Of a DNA stretch of 64,000 nucleotides, positions 2,683 to 15,406 are shown one piece after another. Made by a program: the position numbers and the translations under genes. The notes under the pieces were generated by a model that saw nothing but the letters and a program-made list of their open reading frames with translations, searched no databases and was not told where the DNA came from. This DNA is from a virus (taxonomy: Duplodnaviria > Caudoviricetes). The DNA lies in the IMG/VR virus record IMGVR_UViG_3300037424_000485, positions 140,432 to 204,431 of that record. One strand, 5' to 3'. Every line of letters begins with the position of its first letter. Positions within the stretch are counted from its first letter, which is position 1.

Positions 2683-4917
2683 TTATGGAACAAGTCTCTT
2701 CCCAAACAATGACAAATATGTATTGATATAATGGGTTAGGTTATCATATTCCTCCCAAAACAACTGTTTTCTAACACTTTCAAAATCTTTGGTATATACT
2801 TTATGCCTTAAATCAATATCACCAATTAATTTTTCTATATTACTAACTATATCACCCGATGTATCACATGTCAATGTGGCATCTTTATAAGGCTCTACAT
2901 TTGAGTATACACCTGGACACCCTAGAATGGCGTACTCTAATTTTTTGATATTGCTATTATGAGAAACTATCCCATTAGCTAGATAATAACTACCATCTGG
3001 AACTTGTATATCATAAACATCATTATTAGATTTTTGTATATCAACTATCTCATCATTCATTTCAAATTCTTTAAAAGCATTTGATCTTTTATGTGATAAC
3101 CTTTCTTCTAATATAGATTTCTTTCTATTTGATATAAATCCAATATCCTTATGGAATATTTCAGATGCTTGTCTTCCTAAATACAGAGTATAGTAATCTT
3201 TATCATATGTCTTATTTCTATACACTTGTATACGAGATACTATACCAAAACCTAATAACAGAAATTGAACATCTCTAACCAAATCTTTATCCTTACTTAC
3301 AAAAGAAACAGAAGTTGATTTTTTACATGTAGTTCCATCGGTTTCAAACAAACCTGATAAAAATTCTCTAATTACTGATTTTGGAGATTTTAATATAACA
3401 TCAGGAACCCTTAAAATCTTACCATATCTTCCTTTAAACCCAATTTTATCACCTAAAAATACTTTTAGGTTTCTACTTGATATTTTTATATCAAGGCCCT
3501 TGCCAGAATATCCATCATCTCTTTTCTTTTCAACAAAATGATAGTTTAATCCTATATTAGAAGCAAATTCAGTAATATCATAAATAACATCAATATCGTT
3601 CTTATTACAAGAAATAGATATACAATTAGATGTTGCGAGATGTCCATCACCTAATACATAACCAATAAATCTACCCCATTGCTCATTAATTCTAACTCTT
3701 GGCATAACATCATCATCTAAGCTACTATAATCTATGCTATCTAATTTCTTAGTAATAAACATAGGAAATGTTAGCTCTTGATATGGAACATCTGGAAAAT
3801 CGTAAGTTCCTATATCTACACTATCACCTATTTTAAACTCATCCATTCTTTTATATAGATTAAGACCCCTAAGTTTATGATTCAATGTGCCTTCAATTTC
3901 AAAGCCTTTTTTGGTAATAAATTTTAAAGTATCTCTATTACTATATTTTATATTACTGGCTACATTCTTATATGAATTCTCCTGCCATATAGTATTTTTA
4001 ATATTAACGCTATCTATAGCACAAATACCTTTATCAGTTACCACTCTTGTGTCCTTTACTAGACATTTACAACTATTAAATAGATTATCCTCCAATGGTG
4101 CTATTGCAATATCAACATCGAGCTTCTTAACATACTGAGGAAACTTCCAAATTGATTGCCATTGATGAAATTCTATTTTATCTTTAATATCATGAAGCTC
4201 TCTTGGTAATGCTCCCATAATAACCCATTGGATATCATCAACAGTCTTTCTAATATAATCAAGAAGATCCTTTCCAAAGTCGCCACCTTTCCTATCAGCC
4301 TTCATAGCAAAATGATTACTCGATCCAGCCCAATATACACGTGGCTTTCTGCTAATCTCTTCTTTGAATGGTAGAGGCTCGCCCCATAGAAATTTTGGTA
4401 AATGGTTTGGTATTACCCTGATATTCTTATTAAATTTGCTATATACTTCTTTGAGTTTGTTGGTACTACAAATCATACCATCCATCAACCCCATGATCTG
4501 AGGAATGAATTCTTGTTGCGGCTTATACCAATCAGCAGCAAAATTCCAATCTGGGATCTCTGTTAGTAGATCGTCTATCTCATATATAATTGGTGTGTTT
4601 GTTTGTCTGCTTATATTAGATTTAAAATATTGCAGCATCTCAAGTTGTGGTTTTGTAGCACTTCTTTGAAATTGACAGAATAACAAGTCTTTGTAAAAAT
4701 TAGGATCTGGAATGAATTTATTTCCATAGTTTGCTAAAATTTTTACCTTTGCTATCTCTTCATAATGATTTAGTAATAATGTGGGGAAGATAACTCTTAT
4801 ATGTCCACATCCTTGATTATCAGCAGCATATGAATACATGTTTAACTGGATAGGAGGTTTTATTAAATCCACCTTTGGTTTATTGCCTTTTCTTTTTATA
4901 TTTCTTAAATTTCCCAT
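2683..4917 (-). CDS. GT-B (GT4-like) glycosyltransferase containing an intein
   Basis: GCGHIRV N-terminal motif; spliced motif DIAIAPLEDNLFNSCK|SNIKKLEYAILGCPGVYS is typical of phage GT-B enzymes. Confidence 0.85.
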   Translation of the reverse strand: MGNLRNIKRKGNKPKVDLIKPPIQLNMYSYAADNQGCGHIRVIFPTLLLNHYEEIAKVKILANYGNKFIPDPNFYKDLLFCQFQRSATKPQLEMLQYFKSNISRQTNTPIIYEIDDLLTEIPDWNFAADWYKPQQEFIPQIMGLMDGMICSTNKLKEVYSKFNKNIRVIPNHLPKFLWGEPLPFKEEISRKPRVYWAGSSNHFAMKADRKGGDFGKDLLDYIRKTVDDIQWVIMGALPRELHDIKDKIEFHQWQSIWKFPQYVKKLDVDIAIAPLEDNLFNSCKCLVKDTRVVTDKGICAIDSVNIKNTIWQENSYKNVASNIKYSNRDTLKFITKKGFEIEGTLNHKLRGLNLYKRMDEFKIGDSVDIGTYDFPDVPYQELTFPMFITKKLDSIDYSSLDDDVMPRVRINEQWGRFIGYVLGDGHLATSNCISISCNKNDIDVIYDITEFASNIGLNYHFVEKKRDDGYSGKGLDIKISSRNLKVFLGDKIGFKGRYGKILRVPDVILKSPKSVIREFLSGLFETDGTTCKKSTSVSFVSKDKDLVRDVQFLLLGFGIVSRIQVYRNKTYDKDYYTLYLGRQASEIFHKDIGFISNRKKSILEERLSHKRSNAFKEFEMNDEIVDIQKSNNDVYDIQVPDGSYYLANGIVSHNSNIKKLEYAILGCPGVYSNVEPYKDATLTCDTSGDIVSNIEKLIGDIDLRHKVYTKDFESVRKQLFWEEYDNLTHYINTYLSLFGKRLVP
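2956..4065 (-). mobile_element. intein (370 aa) with LAGLIDADG endonuclease in glycosyltransferase
   Basis: Starts CLVKDTRVVTDKG, ends YYLANGIVSHN with +1 Ser; LAGLIDADG-like FIGYVLGDGH and FLSGLFETDG. Confidence 0.92.
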
Positions 4918-7382: not shown

Positions 7383-7738
7383 TAATCCTCACCTAACTGG
7401 ATTACTGGTAATCTCTCAAGTTCTGTTATGATAGCATCTATAGTGCTATCTGTCAATTCACCATAAATAAATAAATCATAACTATAATCCATTTGTTTAT
7501 AAAATGGTTTTGAATGATCTACCATGTCTGTCTTACTAATATATAGATGATTTATTCTACCACCATTGATACCATAGATGCTTGGGCTATCAGCGACATT
7601 TGCCCTTACCCATCTACCATTAATAATAGCAGTAATCCATCCAGTTATAGAATGTGGATCTACTATTATTATGTTTCCTGTTTTTACTATTTTACTTTCT
7701 TCCATATTGTTATTCTGGGTATCGTATAATCCTTCCAA
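7382..7738 (-). CDS. hypothetical protein
   Basis: ORF track; overlaps thymidylate synthase end. Confidence 0.55.
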   Translation of the reverse strand: MEGLYDTQNNNMEESKIVKTGNIIIVDPHSITGWITAIINGRWVRANVADSPSIYGINGGRINHLYISKTDMVDHSKPFYKQMDYSYDLFIYGELTDSTIDAIITELERLPVIQLGED

Positions 7739-9367
7739 TTTTGGCTTCTATCATATCAATTTGATACTCATATATATGGGAACCAGAGCTATAATAATAC
7801 ATCTTACCTACTTTTTTACCTATATATTCAGCGACCATTTCTTGTAGTCTAGCCATACCACCCATATTAACAGGGAAGCCAGCCCATAAATCATTACTGC
7901 GCCAATAAGTGGTAAGAGTCAGAGAATCACCAACTACTTTGAAATCAATTTCTCTAAGACAGCTTGGGTCATTAATTAATACATCTTCTTTCCTTCCTAT
8001 AGCAATACATGTCTGATTAGTATTTGGTGTGTTTAGAAGAGTTTCCATTACGGTGGGTAGCTGTTCGCCAATTCTTTCTGCATAGGTATTACCAGACCAA
8101 CATGCCTTTCCATTTCTTCTAACATATAATATATGATTTTTTGGTAATCTTGAACAGTAAACAGCGCATGATTTATCATTATCAATTACTTTAACATTTT
8201 TATCTTTTAACACATGAGGCATATTAAAAATATCGTTTTTATAAATATAATTTATATATATATTATTATCCACTCTTTTAGTTAATGTAGAACTATACCC
8301 TATTTTTAAACACAACTCTTGTACATTATCAGCAAGCTGTTTTGATAATGTAGAATATGAACAGTTTCTTGTTGTGCCATCACATCTATACATCCAGTAA
8401 AACAATATTTTTAATTGTTCTTTTGATAGATTCATAAAATCTCTATCAATATATTTATCTCTTGACTTGCCAAATTTTTCAAGATAACAATATAACTGCT
8501 TATCGCTTATTAATATATCTTTATCATAAACTCTGACATTATCAAATATCTTAGAGAATACTTTTATAAAAATATCTTGTTCTTTTTTATTTTGTTTTGT
8601 AATAGTTACAACATATTGATTTTTATCTTTATATCTCCTTAATGACCCATCTGCTAACCAAGCACCATAGAACATTAACCATATATTCATTTTTATCTGT
8701 CTTTGTTCGCCATAGCCATTATATCTATGATTATTATATTCTATAGAAGGAAGAATAAAGTTTTCTTCTTTATTACCTTTCCATATACCATTCTTTTTAA
8801 ACCTAAATCTATAATATGGTATATCATCAACAGGCGATAGATTAAATAATTCTCTATTTTCTTTTGATATATATAGTGAATGTCCTGATGATACTAACTG
8901 ATCTATATACTTGGATTTAACATGATATAGAGGTTTTATAGTATCAAATTTAACATTTTCTATAGGCTTTATATATTCTATTTCATTATTTATAGGGTTT
9001 AAGGAACATATCTTTTCATCACCTTTTAGATCTTTAAAAAAAACCATCCTATATCAGTGAGGACTTCAGTATCTTCCGAATAACAGTATTCCTCATTCTT
9101 CTCTGGCTTCTTACCACCTAAAATATAATTACAATAGTATTCTTCAATAAACTCTTGAGTAGATGGTGGGGCTACCCCAACTGGAACACTAGGAACCATA
9201 TCTACTAAAGGATTTTCAATTTCTACTGATAGAAAGGGGTACTGTAGACGGTATGACTCATTTTCAAATGAGCCTCTATCTATAACTTGTTTATATACTT
9301 CTGGAAGGTCTAAATGATATAACACTTGAAACCATGCATCACTTATAGTTTTTCCAATAATTTCCAT
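7710..9367 (-). CDS. thyA: thymidylate synthase family protein (ThyA, archaeal-like), interrupted by a frameshifted intein
   Basis: Exteins join as NEEY|TYAERIG...DPSCLREIDF...WRSNDLWAGFPVN...SGSHIY (catalytic Cys, RSND, HIY); split over ORFs 9026-9367 and 7710-9047. Confidence 0.85.
8088..9085 (-). mobile_element. intein with LAGLIDADG endonuclease, one base short of in-frame (998 nt)
   Basis: Starts CYSEDTEVLTDIGW, ends YVRRNGKACWSGN with +1 Thr; FYGAWLADGS motif; frame break at T8 run 9036-9043. Confidence 0.88.
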
Positions 9368-9643
9368 TACTTATATATTCCCTATATTCCTTTGCCCATC
9401 TAATAAAATCTATTTGACCACTGGTTTTTATATATTTCTGATATGTCAAACTACAACAGGTCATACAGAGTGCATAATCATCCTAGATCATCTCCACAAT
9501 TAGAGCAATGCATGTCTGGTTCATCACCATAGACATTATACCAAACAACCCTAGTATGGCCTTTAGACCTACAAACAAAAGCCCTTATGGAAAAAGGATC
9601 TTGACATAAATATTTCCACCACTCTTTAGTAAGCCAATGCATA

Positions 9644-9826
9644 TTATTTATCCTTTAGACGATCAGTATTTAATATATTATCTACTTGTTCTTTTAAATC
9701 CATGTTTTTTTCATTAAGATATCTATGATAAGATCTGGATATAATAGAAGACATATCATCCACGTGATATATACCTACACCATTAAACTTTCTAGTAAGC
9801 ATATTATCACCCCAGCTCAAACTCAT
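9644..9826 (-). CDS. hypothetical protein
   Basis: ORF track. Confidence 0.45.
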   Translation of the reverse strand: MSLSWGDNMLTRKFNGVGIYHVDDMSSIISRSYHRYLNEKNMDLKEQVDNILNTDRLKDK

Positions 9827-10019
9827 TCCGTATAACTCTACCTAATGAATGATGGCCTGTAGTTACAGCGTCTTCTTCATTCATAAGCATATACTGCTCA
9901 ATGGTTATATCATCGAAGTCATTAGCTATGATTTCGCTTATACGCTCAAAATTATACAATATGGTTAATGACAGTCCTATTAGCATTTATTTATCCTCAA
10001 ATGATACCTATTCTAATCA

Positions 10020-10226
10020 TTAAGAAATTTTCCTAGATTTATATGCTGAACCAAGGCCCCTACTAAATTTAGAAGCTTGTCTTGTTGTTGCTGGAATACC
10101 AGCATTTTGACATGCTTTAATAAAAGCGTCTGATTTTACGATATTTCTGTTTCTCTCTGCTGCTGCTGATGTATCATAAATCGGCGCACCACCTCTAACA
10201 CGTTCCCACTGTCTAGCTTTACTCAT
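10020..10226 (-). CDS. small basic hypothetical protein
   Basis: ORF track; SD AAGGAG. Confidence 0.65.
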   Translation of the reverse strand: MSKARQWERVRGGAPIYDTSAAAERNRNIVKSDAFIKACQNAGIPATTRQASKFSRGLGSAYKSRKIS

Positions 10227-10296
10227 TTACATCTCCTTGTTTAATTTTAACTTTTTTTTCTTCTTTATTGATATAAAGAAAACATATTTTATTTAA

Positions 10297-10316
10297 CACT
10301 GCCTATACAGGCAGTG
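10297..10316. terminator. GC-rich hairpin, possible terminator
   Basis: CACTGCCT-ATAC-AGGCAGTG perfect 8-bp stem; U-tract on minus strand is short. Confidence 0.45.
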
Positions 10317-10353
10317 GAAGTGATGTTCTTATATTCAATACATATCCTCTTCT

Positions 10354-10560
10354 TTATAAACGTTTAACATCTATTTTTTTATTATATATATCAGACATCA
10401 TAATGTAAACAAACAGATCTGTTAGATCGTGTTTTACTTTATCCCCTTTTACAAGATCTTCAAAAGCCGTTGGAATGAAAACACTGTCATCTTCTCTATA
10501 AACTTTTTTATTTTGATCTCTAACACCCCAACATCCATCCAACATATTATCAGTAATCAT
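10354..10560 (-). CDS. hypothetical protein
   Basis: ORF track 10354-10587; likely start MIITDN overlapping upstream stop. Confidence 0.5.
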   Translation of the reverse strand: MITDNMLDGCWGVRDQNKKVYREDDSVFIPTAFEDLVKGDKVKHDLTDLFVYIMMSDIYNKKIDVKRL

Positions 10561-10729
10561 TATTATTTTTACCATAGTAATAGTCAATCACATGCTGAAA
10601 ACCCATTCCCAAAACAAACCATATAGGCGATACTAATCCGTTGGCTGGTGTCTTCAAAAGAAAGCATAGCATATGCCCAATAATAGCAAACAATATAAGA
10701 ATATAAAGAACTTTAAATCCAACCCACAT
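10550..10729 (-). CDS. small two-helix membrane protein (59 aa, not in track)
   Basis: MWVGFKVLYILILFAIIGHMLCFLL...LVSPIWFVLGMGF; TAATG coupling to upstream gene. Confidence 0.55.
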   Translation of the reverse strand: MWVGFKVLYILILFAIIGHMLCFLLKTPANGLVSPIWFVLGMGFQHVIDYYYGKNNNDY

Positions 10730-10884
10730 TAATAGTTCCTCATGTTCTTGTGTTTCTTGTTACGTACATAAGAACCCTTGCCTTTTATAGGACGATGTAC
10801 AATAACACCTATCTTTGAAACAGGTTTACGAATACTTCTTTGTATTGCTATCATATCTATTTTCATATTCGTTATCATTTTCAT
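10729..10884 (-). CDS. ArfA-like small basic protein (51 aa, not in track)
   Basis: C-terminal KGKGSYVRNKKHK resembles E. coli ArfA KGKGSYMRKGKH; SD GGAGG 7 nt upstream; first gene after a promoter. Confidence 0.6.
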   Translation of the reverse strand: MKMITNMKIDMIAIQRSIRKPVSKIGVIVHRPIKGKGSYVRNKKHKNMRNY

Positions 10885-10915
10885 TGTCCTACCTCCTATT
10901 GATTTATTTCATAGC

Positions 10916-10944
10916 AATATACTACTATCTTTATCTACCGTCAA
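10916..10944 (-). promoter_or_regulatory. sigma70-type early promoter
   Basis: TTGACG-17 bp-TATATT with A-rich upstream element. Confidence 0.7.
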
Positions 10945-10950
10945 TCTATT

Positions 10951-11115
10951 TTATACATTTTTCTTAAATTGGGTATATTCATATAGAACATGATAGTATG
11001 AGCTACGTGCTGCGATATACTCATTCTTCAGCCCTTCCTGACCAGAGACACAAGAATAAATTTTATCATTTAAACTGCTGATTTCGTTGGATATTTTACT
11101 CTCAAAAGCGTCCAT
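10951..11115 (-). CDS. small hypothetical protein (54 aa, not in track)
   Basis: MDAFESKISNEISS...FKKNV; AGGA SD upstream. Confidence 0.45.
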   Translation of the reverse strand: MDAFESKISNEISSLNDKIYSCVSGQEGLKNEYIAARSSYYHVLYEYTQFKKNV

Positions 11116-11150
11116 ATGTTAGTTTTCCTATATTTATTTTAAAATACCTA

Positions 11151-11179
11151 TTGACAAACCTTATTCTTTATGTTATAAT
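11151..11179 (+). promoter_or_regulatory. perfect consensus sigma70 promoter, antisense to late operon
   Basis: TTGACA-17 bp-TATAAT with extended -10 TG; no + strand ORF downstream. Confidence 0.75.
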
Positions 11180-11228
11180 AAAACCTGTTAAGGGGGGAAA
11201 TATAATATTTGAATTTTAGAAGCAACAG

Positions 11229-11268
11229 ATTCAAATTTGAATTAGAAATTTGAATTAGAAATTTTAAA
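11229..11268. repeat. 14-bp palindrome overlapping 13-bp tandem repeats
   Basis: ATTCAAATTTGAAT (11229-11242); AAATTTGAATTAG at 11233 and 11246, partial third copy. Confidence 0.7.
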
Positions 11269-11512
11269 CAAATGTTTCCTTTATCCAATCCTTAATAGAA
11301 GAAATAGTTTTACAATTATCAAGAGACTCTAATTGAGAAGAAGACAATTTAAAATTAACATTCTTTATTATCATATTACCCAATGAAGTTAAAGGATGAT
11401 TACCTTTCTTTAACCACTTTATATAAAGACTCCAACCAACAGAACCCTTTTTAACCATCTTATTAGTCTCTATATTAAAAACAGTATTACTTTTATTTGT
11501 TATTTGATACAT
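11264..11512 (-). CDS. putative tail fibre assembly protein
   Basis: YxxWLxxGNxP motif; follows fibre/adhesin genes. Confidence 0.5.
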   Translation of the reverse strand: MYQITNKSNTVFNIETNKMVKKGSVGWSLYIKWLKKGNHPLTSLGNMIIKNVNFKLSSSQLESLDNCKTISSIKDWIKETFV

Positions 11513-11524
11513 TTAATATCTCCT

Positions 11525-12880
11525 TTATACCTTATAAATGTAAGCTTTACCACTTGATAAACCACCTGCATCGTCTTCCAGATAAGCACCAACAATTGCA
11601 TAGTTGTCTGATATAGCTATAGAGTATCCAAAGCTATCACCATCACTAGTGTTATAAGCATTAGGGTTGTCTAATGTACTAAGCAAAGCACCTGTAGCTG
11701 GATTGTAAATATAAGCTTTACCACTTGTCAAGCCACCTGCATCATCTTCATAAGGAGCACCAACAATAGCATAGCTGTCTGATATAGAAACATAATATCC
11801 AAAATAATCGCCTGTTGTTGAGCTATAAGCATTAGGATTGTCTAGTGTATGAAGCAAAGCACCTGTAACGCTGTTGTAAATATAAGCTATACCACTACCT
11901 AACCCACTAATATCATCTTCTTGATAAGCACCAACAATAGCATAAATATCTGAAATAGAAACAGAGTATCCAAAGCTATCACCAGCACTAGTGTCATATG
12001 CATTAGGGTTGTCTAATGTCCATAGCAAAGTACCTGTAGCATTATCGAAAATATAAGCTTTACCGCTACTTAAACCACCAGCATCATCTTCCAAATAAGC
12101 ACCAATAATAGCATAGCTATTTGATATAGAAACAGAGTATCCAAAATAATCACCATCAGTAGTGCCATATGCATTAGGGTTGTCAAGTGTCCATAATAGA
12201 GCACCTGTAGAAGAATTGTAAATATAAGCTTTACCACTACCTGTGCCACCTGCATCATCTTCATAAGGAGCACCAACAATAGCATAGCTATCTGATATAG
12301 CTATAGAGTATCCAAAACCATCAACAGCACTAGTGTCATAAGCATTAGGGTTATCTAGTGTCCATAATAGAACACCAGTAGCATTATCATAAATATAAGC
12401 TTTACCACTGTCCAATCCACCTGCATCATCTTCCAGCATAGCACCTACAATTGCATAGCTTTCTGAAATAGAAACAGCTCTACCAAAGTTATCATTAAGG
12501 CTAGTGTCATAAGCATTAGGGTTATCTAGTGTCCATAATAGAACACCAGTAGCATTATCGAAAATATAAGCTTTACCACTACCTGTTCCGCCTATATCAT
12601 CTTCAGCATAAGCACCTACAATTGCATAGCTATTTGATATAGATACAGCTCTACCAAAATAGTCATTAAGGCTAGTGTCATAAGCATTAGGGTTGTCTAG
12701 TGTGCGAAGAAAACTTATAAGTGCCTTACCATAGCCATCAGAAAGACTAATAGCACCTGTATAAACACCAAACAAATGTCTCAAATTAGCCTGTCCAAGG
12801 CTAATTAGTGTTGTTGATATTTCACTAAGCTCAGTATTTACTTGTGATAATGATATGCTTCCGCTTGCTGGTAATGTCAT
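11525..12880 (-). CDS. virion adhesin with 7 FG-GAP-like beta-propeller blades
   Basis: 7 x ~57-aa repeat LDNPNAY..FG..V.IS..YAIVGA..ED..G..SGKAYI; MTLPASGSISL N-terminus typical of fibre-associated proteins. Confidence 0.85.
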   Translation of the reverse strand: MTLPASGSISLSQVNTELSEISTTLISLGQANLRHLFGVYTGAISLSDGYGKALISFLRTLDNPNAYDTSLNDYFGRAVSISNSYAIVGAYAEDDIGGTGSGKAYIFDNATGVLLWTLDNPNAYDTSLNDNFGRAVSISESYAIVGAMLEDDAGGLDSGKAYIYDNATGVLLWTLDNPNAYDTSAVDGFGYSIAISDSYAIVGAPYEDDAGGTGSGKAYIYNSSTGALLWTLDNPNAYGTTDGDYFGYSVSISNSYAIIGAYLEDDAGGLSSGKAYIFDNATGTLLWTLDNPNAYDTSAGDSFGYSVSISDIYAIVGAYQEDDISGLGSGIAYIYNSVTGALLHTLDNPNAYSSTTGDYFGYYVSISDSYAIVGAPYEDDAGGLTSGKAYIYNPATGALLSTLDNPNAYNTSDGDSFGYSIAISDNYAIVGAYLEDDAGGLSSGKAYIYKV

Positions 12881-12886
12881 TAAATA

Positions 12887-15406
12887 TTACCCTAGTTTAG
12901 ATTCTAATATTTTAATTTTATTATTAAGTTCTTTTATAGCCTCTATTAATAGAGGGACTAATTTTTCATATTGAACAGTCATATAATTTTCACCTGATTT
13001 AGATGATATATATCCTAACTCTGCATCTCTATTAATATCAAATGGAGCTGGTTTTACTACTTGAGGGAGAATTAATTTTACCTCTTGAGCACTGATACCA
13101 ACCTCTATATCATCACTCATATATCCATATGATTTTGCTATACTATTAGCAGTATAATAAAAGCCATTTAGGGTACTGATCATATCAAGAGCGTTTTCAA
13201 TATTACCGATCTTATTTTTAAGTCTCATATCAGAAAAATAAGCAGTTATATTTCCAGTAGCTGTAATATCCCCTGTAGTAGCAAAACCTGCACTGGCTGA
13301 TTCTACTGTTATGTCATGAGATCCATCAAATTGAATACCACCTATAGTACGAGCTGTTTCAAGGGTTGTAGCAGTTGATGAATTACCTACAAGATCGCCG
13401 GTAAATGTTGTAGTTGTAAGTATACCGGCAGCAGAGTTAAAAGTTAAATTTGTACCTGTATGTATTTGCTGTATTCCCTCAGGACTATTAAAATATGCTA
13501 CATAACAGCTAGTATCTGCACTCTCATCAAATGATGTAATAGTGATAGCATTCCCAGATAAAGATTGTACATCTAACAGTTCTGACTGTGTTAAGTGATA
13601 ATACTCACCAGGGCCTCCTCCTTGTATGCTACCAAGGCCATTATGGAGAACAGGTGTTGATGATTGCAGTAATTGGGAAAAAGGACTTTGAATTTCAGTT
13701 ATATTTGAAGCACCTTGTAAATAAATTACCTTCCCTACTAATTGAGATCCTACACCTGTTGCTTCTGGTGGTAAAATTCCTGGTATCTCTGCCACTTGAG
13801 CATCTGTTAGTGTTGCGTACTGATCTTGTCCATATACAGAATATAAAGAAGATGAAGTACCTATAATTAAATAAATCCAATGAACACCGTAATATCCGGC
13901 TGTCATTGCTGAAAGTGTCCCTGTCCCGACATCAAAATAATTAACATCTATATCTGTTTGAGATGGCGTTCTTACCCAATCACCTCCCGACATATACAAT
14001 GTAGTGAATGTATCCGCTGCACTAGTATCAAATGATGGATGGGTTCTTTTAATATTAGCTAAGTAAAAAATACCAGCTGTTAGGTTCAATCTAAGAGCAC
14101 TAGTACCTTCTGTTAGAACTGTACCTCCTGGTTGATGTTCATACCCATTAACAAAGAAGTCTTTTCTTGAGTTATTTGCCTGATAATTAAGACCATATTC
14201 TCTCATATCAACAATATGTAGAGTATTTTCTATTCTATTAACAATCCATATAGGAACTTTTGTATATCCAGCCTCTACAGGCACTGAAGTTTCACATGTA
14301 ATTCTGGTAGTACCCATATTCCAATCAGCAAATAAATAGTTAGGTATATTATCTACCAATGATGATATACCACCAATACCTGTAGTTCCAGATGGTACAC
14401 TGAATTCTTCAAGTGATGTTGTGTATATATCAAGTCCTGTTCTTAATAATGCATTACCAGCGGATATAGTTACAGTTCCATTTCCATTATCAATAAGATC
14501 AAATCCACTAAGTGGTGTTGATGACATTACATGATCAAAATATGCCTGAACACTTGAAAGACTAGGTGTTTCTGAATGTGTTGGATAATCTATAGCTGAT
14601 GTTGGCCATGTATAATATAGTATATTATCTACATTAACCTGTACACTTTCAATTTCATTTTGTAATATAATAGCAGATACACTAAGTACATTTATATCAT
14701 AATTATTAGCATCTATAGCTGCTGATAGAAAATCTGTATTTAACTCTAAAGAATATACGCTTGATGATAGAGGCATCATATCAATAATTGATTGTGTATT
14801 AGCATCTATAGCTGCTGATAGAAATGCTGTATATGCTGTTAAATAACTACCATCTACAGTTAAATTATCAATAGATGCTGATAGAAATTCAGTATTTAAA
14901 TTAAGAGTATTTAGATGATTATCACTTACCAGTTTATTCCTAATAGTATCTATACTACCATCTACAATACTATATATATTATGAGCACCTTCATTATAGC
15001 TAGTTCCTGTTACATGCTCAGTCCAAATATTTGCATAGTAGTTACTAACCACCCTATCTTTGGTTTGACTATTATCTTTAACATCAACAGGATAATAATC
15101 AAGACTCTCATCAAAAACATCTACGTAATCTATATGACCTTTTGATATCCCTGCTTTATCCCATGCTATTTTTATTTTTTGAGATGAATCATATCCGCCA
15201 TCTTCTTGTAAATCTGCAATCCAGAATTCAAAAAATCCATTAGATAATGTTACTACTTGACCAACAGCATCAGGCGATCCGCCATCTTCTTGATGATATA
15301 TAGTAGCTTGTGTTTCACTACCTGCAAGATACACCTGTACAGTAGCACCTTCAATTGGTTGTCCTTCTCTGTTTATCAAATACTGCCATACATGTGCTCT
15401 AGCCAT
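12887..15406 (-). CDS. tail fibre with C-terminal intramolecular chaperone (peptidase S74)
   Basis: YFSDMRLK...GISAQEV...VQYEKLVPLLIEAIKEL. Confidence 0.88.
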   Translation of the reverse strand: MARAHVWQYLINREGQPIEGATVQVYLAGSETQATIYHQEDGGSPDAVGQVVTLSNGFFEFWIADLQEDGGYDSSQKIKIAWDKAGISKGHIDYVDVFDESLDYYPVDVKDNSQTKDRVVSNYYANIWTEHVTGTSYNEGAHNIYSIVDGSIDTIRNKLVSDNHLNTLNLNTEFLSASIDNLTVDGSYLTAYTAFLSAAIDANTQSIIDMMPLSSSVYSLELNTDFLSAAIDANNYDINVLSVSAIILQNEIESVQVNVDNILYYTWPTSAIDYPTHSETPSLSSVQAYFDHVMSSTPLSGFDLIDNGNGTVTISAGNALLRTGLDIYTTSLEEFSVPSGTTGIGGISSLVDNIPNYLFADWNMGTTRITCETSVPVEAGYTKVPIWIVNRIENTLHIVDMREYGLNYQANNSRKDFFVNGYEHQPGGTVLTEGTSALRLNLTAGIFYLANIKRTHPSFDTSAADTFTTLYMSGGDWVRTPSQTDIDVNYFDVGTGTLSAMTAGYYGVHWIYLIIGTSSSLYSVYGQDQYATLTDAQVAEIPGILPPEATGVGSQLVGKVIYLQGASNITEIQSPFSQLLQSSTPVLHNGLGSIQGGGPGEYYHLTQSELLDVQSLSGNAITITSFDESADTSCYVAYFNSPEGIQQIHTGTNLTFNSAAGILTTTTFTGDLVGNSSTATTLETARTIGGIQFDGSHDITVESASAGFATTGDITATGNITAYFSDMRLKNKIGNIENALDMISTLNGFYYTANSIAKSYGYMSDDIEVGISAQEVKLILPQVVKPAPFDINRDAELGYISSKSGENYMTVQYEKLVPLLIEAIKELNNKIKILESKLG

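Follow-up and report, generated by a model that had tools for sequence, protein, structure and literature searches.

The closest described systems are the ribosome-rescue proteins ArfA, BrfA and ArfT. The KGKGS motif occupies the empty mRNA channel (PMC6299226), and the KH motif sits in a pocket of that channel in ArfA and BrfA alike (PMC8012679). In E. coli ArfA, residues 27-30 form an added strand on RF2, F25 confers RF2 specificity and helix 15-24 touches the decoding centre; with the A18T change the protein still binds and still brings in RF2, but RF2 is not activated (PMC8012679). BrfA and ArfT are rescue factors as well, although their N-termini do not resemble that of ArfA (PMC8012679, PMC6299226), and further small release-factor-recruiting rescue proteins, missed by homology search, are expected (PMC8012679). 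A survey of 15,000 genomes found ArfA confined to gamma- and betaproteobacteria and ten Bacillus species of the B. subtilis group (PMC11633108). In phages, gp10 of Citromicrobium phage RXM (PMC8953757) and gp30 of Pelagibacter phage HTVC027P, which is expressed early and late (PMC12753301), have been annotated as ArfA, and GenBank carries the same annotation for a 36-aa protein of Brevundimonas phage Kikimora (04590). The ArfA passages on RXM and HTVC027P (PMC8953757, PMC12753301) contain no functional test, and for phage ArfA-like proteins the literature that we searched yielded annotations and one transcriptome but no test of function.

The locus described here belongs to an uncultured T4-like sediment phage. 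The virus record comprises 204,431 bases (32% GC, 85% complete), and its final 64 kb are the window, by which we mean the whole stretch of DNA analysed. The capsid protein is T4-like and is 32-36% identical to those of cultured cyanophage and Stenotrophomonas T4-like phages. The DNA is present in two runs, both sediment metagenomes, and there is no RNA run among the runs listed with this DNA. The locus lies at the junction between the structural genes (from 11264 upwards) and a series of small ORFs on the minus strand that extends to a split thymidylate synthase. Its features are as follows, in window coordinates:

10729..10884, minus strand: ArfA-like ORF, 51 aa (P0001), with a TAA stop 17 residues past K34
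10750..10785, minus strand: residues 34-45, KGKGSYxRxxKH, predicted mRNA-channel binding module (E. coli ArfA numbering)
10789..10833, minus strand: residues 18-32, subfamily segment (I/F/L)RxPVxxxGVIxHxP (from family conservation)
10892..10897, minus strand: Shine-Dalgarno sequence AGGAGG, with the ATG 7 nt downstream
10916..10944, minus strand: sigma-70-type promoter TTGACG-17-TATATT (consensus match only, 10/12)
10550..10729, minus strand: downstream hydrophobic ORF, 59 aa, whose ATG overlaps the P0001 stop

The first-pass annotation had described a 51-aa ORF with a Shine-Dalgarno sequence directly after TTGACG-17-TATATT; the ORF, AGGAGG and the promoter were all found, and the C-terminus is as it was quoted. 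Taken on its own the promoter is weak evidence, because the DNA is AT-rich and 54 promoter-like sites were counted against 35.7 +/- 5.8 in shuffles. It fits a recurring TTGAC(A/T)-TATA(G/T/A)T class that stands ahead of genes with Shine-Dalgarno sequences genome-wide, and early expression of P0001 is suggested by this promoter type only. The P0001 stop shares bases with the next ATG (TAATG at 10731-10727), and a search of 8000-14000 revealed no terminator on the minus strand, which makes an operon plausible; the 59-aa hydrophobic ORF, for which Pfam and other family searches found no family, is probably co-translated with P0001. The gene had also been called the first of its operon. Relative to the TTGACG promoter this holds, but a 54-aa ORF terminates at 10951, just upstream of that promoter, so that transcription from further upstream may read through. 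A public sediment assembly, possibly the source sample, spans the P0001 gene with 0 differences.

Several other elements of this region were recorded. Three genes downstream of P0001 lies a 68-aa basic ORF with a good Shine-Dalgarno sequence and no family match (window 10020-10226, minus strand). Two adjacent ORFs at window 9644-9986 (minus strand) match the halves of DUF6794 (profile positions 11-50 and 51-83) and, from their sequences, appear to be one split or frameshifted gene. The thymidylate synthase (window 7710-9367, minus strand) is carried in two overlapping ORFs, the second interrupted by a LAGLIDADG insertion that is probably an intein, with the frame break near its start; in a syntenic phage (L019) a different gene, ThyX-looking by eye, takes its place. 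No contig of run X1 covers 9500-11115, although contigs cannot prove absence, and in runs X1 and X2 a contig joins 11174 to other sequence, so that the block of small genes to which P0001 belongs (9500-11174) seems strain-variable. At window 11151-11320 (plus strand), a perfect TTGACA-17-TATAAT promoter with an extended -10 faces the structural-gene ends. No ORF follows it, and the 135 nt after it form one long hairpin (z -2.95); in the two-run variant the DNA differs before 11174 but TTTACA-17-TATAAT is kept. This element is possibly a small or antisense RNA.

Protein and DNA searches gave at least 12 relatives of P0001, with the common motif RxPVxxxGVIxHxPxKGKGSYxR. Among the listed members R19, P21, G26, V27, K34, G35, Y39 and R41 are invariant and the ends are free, several relatives beginning only at position 13-14. 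Nine DNA copies, compared over the core, diverge by 0.29, 0.22 and 0.61 at codon positions 1, 2 and 3, respectively, and different codons are used in 376 of 611 identical-residue pairs. The relative in the related phage L019 lies upstream of homologues of two window genes (39% and 55% identity) with their order kept, and three other relatives, in another phage group, stand with rIIB or its neighbours on one side and a PolyA_pol/CCA-type enzyme on the other; gene neighbours vary from relative to relative. All listed members with enough context appear to be phage-borne, and none of 13 GTDB matches was a bacterial genome with the P0001 subfamily. At least 12 relatives with mostly synonymous DNA change, together with the shared neighbourhood in the related phage, establish P0001 as a real, conserved and previously unannotated phage gene. 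A match to phrog_37108 (E 0.004) adds nothing functional, since that family has no assigned function. Two sets of candidates were rejected: the only three tblastn matches to P0001 among cultured phages, all in Klebsiella phages (E 2), which lay outside annotated genes, and P0003, a 1231-aa tail fibre-like repeat protein with a chance match to the GVI stretch.

The C-terminal half of P0001 resembles ArfA. PF03889 is its sole Pfam match (E 2.7e-4, 20.8 bits, below the curated cut-off of 25.5 bits and restricted to profile positions 27-44), and nothing else in the genome matches that family. For three short relatives ArfA is again the sole Pfam match (18-23 bits), and P0009 and P0010 have a precomputed PF03889 match. 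The best of 177,635 PDB sequences is E. coli ArfA, with P0001 as the query (E 0.15) and likewise with the family profile (E 1.6e-4); the Pfam match and the two PDB matches are one signal viewed three ways. Anchored on K34, the sequence runs in ungapped register with Salmonella ArfA at K34-G35-K36-G37-S38-Y39-R41-K44-H45, so that KGKGS(Y)xR and the basic tail are both present in the ArfA register. The KH motif, K44-H45 in P0001, is kept in 7 of the 13 listed family members. KGKGSYxRxxKH, a motif picked post hoc, occurs once in the six frames of the 204-kb genome against 6e-7 expected. A home-built canonical ArfA profile scored P0001 at 29.3 bits, compared with a best of 13.4 in 2000 shuffles, a score that is partly circular because the profile was collected via the same motif. 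NCBIfam gave no match to P0001, a negative that is uninformative since canonical phage ArfA was also unmatched, and the ESM Atlas neighbours (0.91-0.92) are hypothetical proteins, with the ArfA label on 15% of the first cluster. The proposed ArfA-like C-terminal module is thus upheld by the Pfam match, the top PDB match and the motif register. The concern, raised with that proposal, that a profile might match nothing beyond a low-complexity basic motif is correct as to extent (27-44 only) but not as to kind, as a specific motif in the ArfA register is matched and not a composition.

Is P0001 then a member of the ArfA family? The N-terminal half of the P0001 family cannot be aligned with that of canonical ArfA (hhalign probability 1.6%), and the family does not keep helix 15-24, A18 or F25 of ArfA, whose place is taken by (I/F/L)RxPVxxxGVIxHxP. 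Position 18 is bulky (I18 in P0001; I, F, L or V in the family) in contrast to the small A18, P21 is invariant inside the ArfA helix region, position 25 is variable and G26 is invariant. The ArfA N-terminal loop is absent too, since in many relatives the protein begins no earlier than position 13-14. V27-H30 (V-I-V-H) falls in the register of the RF2-binding strand 27-30 of ArfA and is strand-prone in composition, yet is unlike the ArfA QRVE, and G26 is common to the P0001 family, a marine NTG type and chromosomal clostridial genes. The AlphaFold model of P0001 is of low confidence (pLDDT 61, pTM 0.25), and modelling it together with E. coli RF2 (110-365) gave a score of 0.00, which has no weight either way. 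The remark in the first-pass annotation that the N-terminal half does not obviously match ArfA proved accurate, and this half has a conserved segment of its own. On this comparison P0001 falls outside strict ArfA membership; a functional likeness is possible all the same, because ribosome rescue is also carried out by BrfA and ArfT, each of which has its own type of N-terminus.

In addition, P0001 differs from ArfA in its apparent regulation. A fast terminator test overlooks Salmonella arfA, the hairpin of which has no long U-run, and folding z-scores were therefore added. The 3' half of the P0001 gene contains no in-gene hairpin when compared with shuffles (z -0.19 and -0.45), against z -5.0 for Salmonella arfA. 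An in-gene terminator is absent in 8 of 9 subfamily loci tested; L005 (P0005, same subfamily) contains a strong hairpin plus U-run that ends 5 nt short of the stop (z -4.3), comparable to Salmonella arfA. At 51 aa P0001 compares with 52-55 aa for active truncated ArfA, and it has no hydrophobic or destabilising tail. The suggestion that the destabilising tail and the non-stop mRNA control had been lost agrees with the normal TAA 17 residues after K34 and with the missing hairpin, which also speaks, as a prediction, for the protein being constitutively active.

Uncharacterised ArfA-like genes are also found in clostridia (L048-L060, L016, L028). Loci L048, L050-L055, L057, L059 and L060 come from Clostridium muellerianum, drakei, oryzae, grantii and sediminicola and from MAGs, and the gene occupies about 3910-4160 in these loci (2363-2617 in L055). 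Its products are like P0001 in G26, often H30, the full motif and the lack of a canonical ArfA N-terminus, but they have their own RKFxxxEI(S/G)RG segment, are chromosomal and in many cases combine an in-gene terminator with a hydrophobic tail. A terminator-like hairpin lies inside the ORF, 14-76 nt before the stop, in 5 of 12 clostridial genes (null at most 1/40); the hairpin of L055 has z -6.1, and in four more genes a hairpin ends at the stop and may be an ordinary terminator. The gene was absent from 120 other genomes sampled from the class, its distribution being sporadic. The in-gene hairpin is the control design of arfA and brfA and is therefore sensible for a rescue factor, and the clostridial product is, judged from its gene, a candidate rescue factor. 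As L005 and several clostridial relatives keep an in-gene hairpin, a rescue role is favoured. Of the indirect arguments that peptides of this sort serve as rescue factors, the strongest is that relatives whose front halves are non-canonical show non-stop control. KGKGSY peptides with yet other front halves were seen in L029 (3974-4102), L036 (1369-1530), L056 (3923-4123) and L058 (3977-4081), from marine contigs, a Spirochaetota MAG and a Patescibacteria MAG; several of this group have a hairpin and U-run at or before the stop.

Our preferred reading, held with modest confidence, is that P0001 may act as an unregulated, release-factor-recruiting ribosome-rescue peptide of the ArfA/BrfA/ArfT type. 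Its basic KGKGSYxRxxKH tail would, with good probability, enter the mRNA channel left empty in ribosomes that have stalled on broken mRNA. Given such docking, it is reasonably likely that the family segment would recruit and open a release factor: residues 27-30 (VIVH) would supply an extra strand to a class I factor of the host and the RxPV..G segment would open it, in place of the ArfA helix, as BrfA and ArfT use their own unrelated N-termini. Because its stop is normal and its promoter of host type, P0001 could be made without awaiting tmRNA failure, and ribosomes would be returned to phage translation after mRNA cutting or degradation in infection. The genome also carries an RNA-repair set, all of it outside the window:

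G000:C1 125294-126388: RtcB
G000:C1 13406-14938: Ro60/TROVE
G000:C1 34268-35716: PolyA_pol/CCA-type enzyme
G000:C1 45296-45745: NADAR
G000:C1 130087-138844: eight tRNAs

This set is consistent with a phage guarding translation from RNA damage; RtcB, Ro60/TROVE, the PolyA_pol/CCA-type enzyme and the tRNAs, with the three relatives near such an enzyme, give the rescue reading contextual support. The repair genes lie 25-140 kb from the ArfA-like gene in this genome, and such distant genes do not decide between readings of P0001. Against rescue stand the sub-cut-off Pfam match, the unaligned N-terminal half, the missing N-terminal loop, the bulky residue 18, P21, the variable position 25 and a KH motif kept in only 7 of 13 members.

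[quoted passage not shown] Such a peptide would compete with tmRNA-SmpB and host Arf factors or park idle ribosomes. We regard it as the main rival, though an unlikely one: the hairpin or terminator in L005 and in the G26-class clostridial genes implies synthesis on tmRNA failure, which suits a rescuer instead, and the invariance of R19, P21, G26 and V27 is stronger conservation than a plug requires. The repair genes, in this genome and near three relatives, and the absence of any release factor or tmRNA gene found in the record (85% complete) might rather indicate a peptide that protects or holds ribosomes or recruits an RNA-repair partner (RtcB, Ro60 or the CCA enzyme) and not a release factor. 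With the repair genes at that distance, neighbours that vary across relatives and no known KGKGS peptide acting so, this is quite improbable.

Could the gene be real and its likeness to ArfA convergent or vestigial, the product being a basic nucleic-acid-binding peptide without a ribosome role? The Pfam score below the cut-off, the NCBIfam negative, the hypothetical ESM Atlas neighbours, whose first cluster is 15% ArfA-labelled, and a region that seems replaced in a related strain all fit this view, which we nevertheless find rather improbable, because nine motif positions are in exact ArfA register, shuffles fall short, the change pattern is purifying and the position is retained in the related phage. 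A broader proposal, which we put forward tentatively, is that the phage family, the marine NTG type and the clostridial genes form a separate G26 class of KGKGS factors. The phage front half might then have been rewired, either for rescue with another release factor or for an uncontrolled block of tmRNA tagging and takeover of the host's handling of stalled ribosomes.

Finally, P0001 can be set beside the known systems. It shares with ArfA of E. coli and Salmonella (YhdL; PF03889; PDB 5H5U, 5MDV, 5U4I, 5MGP) the KGKGSYxR and KH register and the basic tail, but it is phage-encoded, lacks helix 15-24, A18, F25, the hydrophobic tail and the in-gene hairpin, and has the invariant P21 and G26. BrfA of B. 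subtilis, with its release-factor-dependent rescue, KH motif and N-terminus unlike ArfA, is a precedent for a front-half swap; it is made from a non-stop mRNA, however, and has an N-terminal helix, and a PDB search with the P0001 family gave no BrfA match. ArfT of Francisella is similarly small (~40 aa), with a KGKGS-like motif near the C-terminus and regulation unlike arfA, and is often unannotated (PMC6299226); it differs in having KKGGS, in recruiting RF1 or RF2 and in being chromosomal, and is likened to P0001 by its published motif description alone. The annotated ArfA proteins of RXM, HTVC027P and Kikimora are likewise products of small phage genes with a KG(K/R)GS(Y/F)xR module, and those of Kikimora (36 aa) and HTVC027P also stop shortly after the basic segment, but they have the canonical NPxAxxLxxPx(F/Y)(R/K) front half that the P0001 family lacks. 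The novelty of a phage ArfA, implied in the first-pass annotation, was overstated, since both GenBank and published papers already contain phage ArfA annotations and the Kikimora protein is equally short-tailed; what is new is the conserved non-ArfA front half together with the loss of non-stop control. With the channel motif kept and the activating half swapped, a synthetic peptide of 36-51 aa could show which part sets the choice of release factor, and P0001-type peptides offer a direct way to ask whether phages rescue or block stalled ribosomes.
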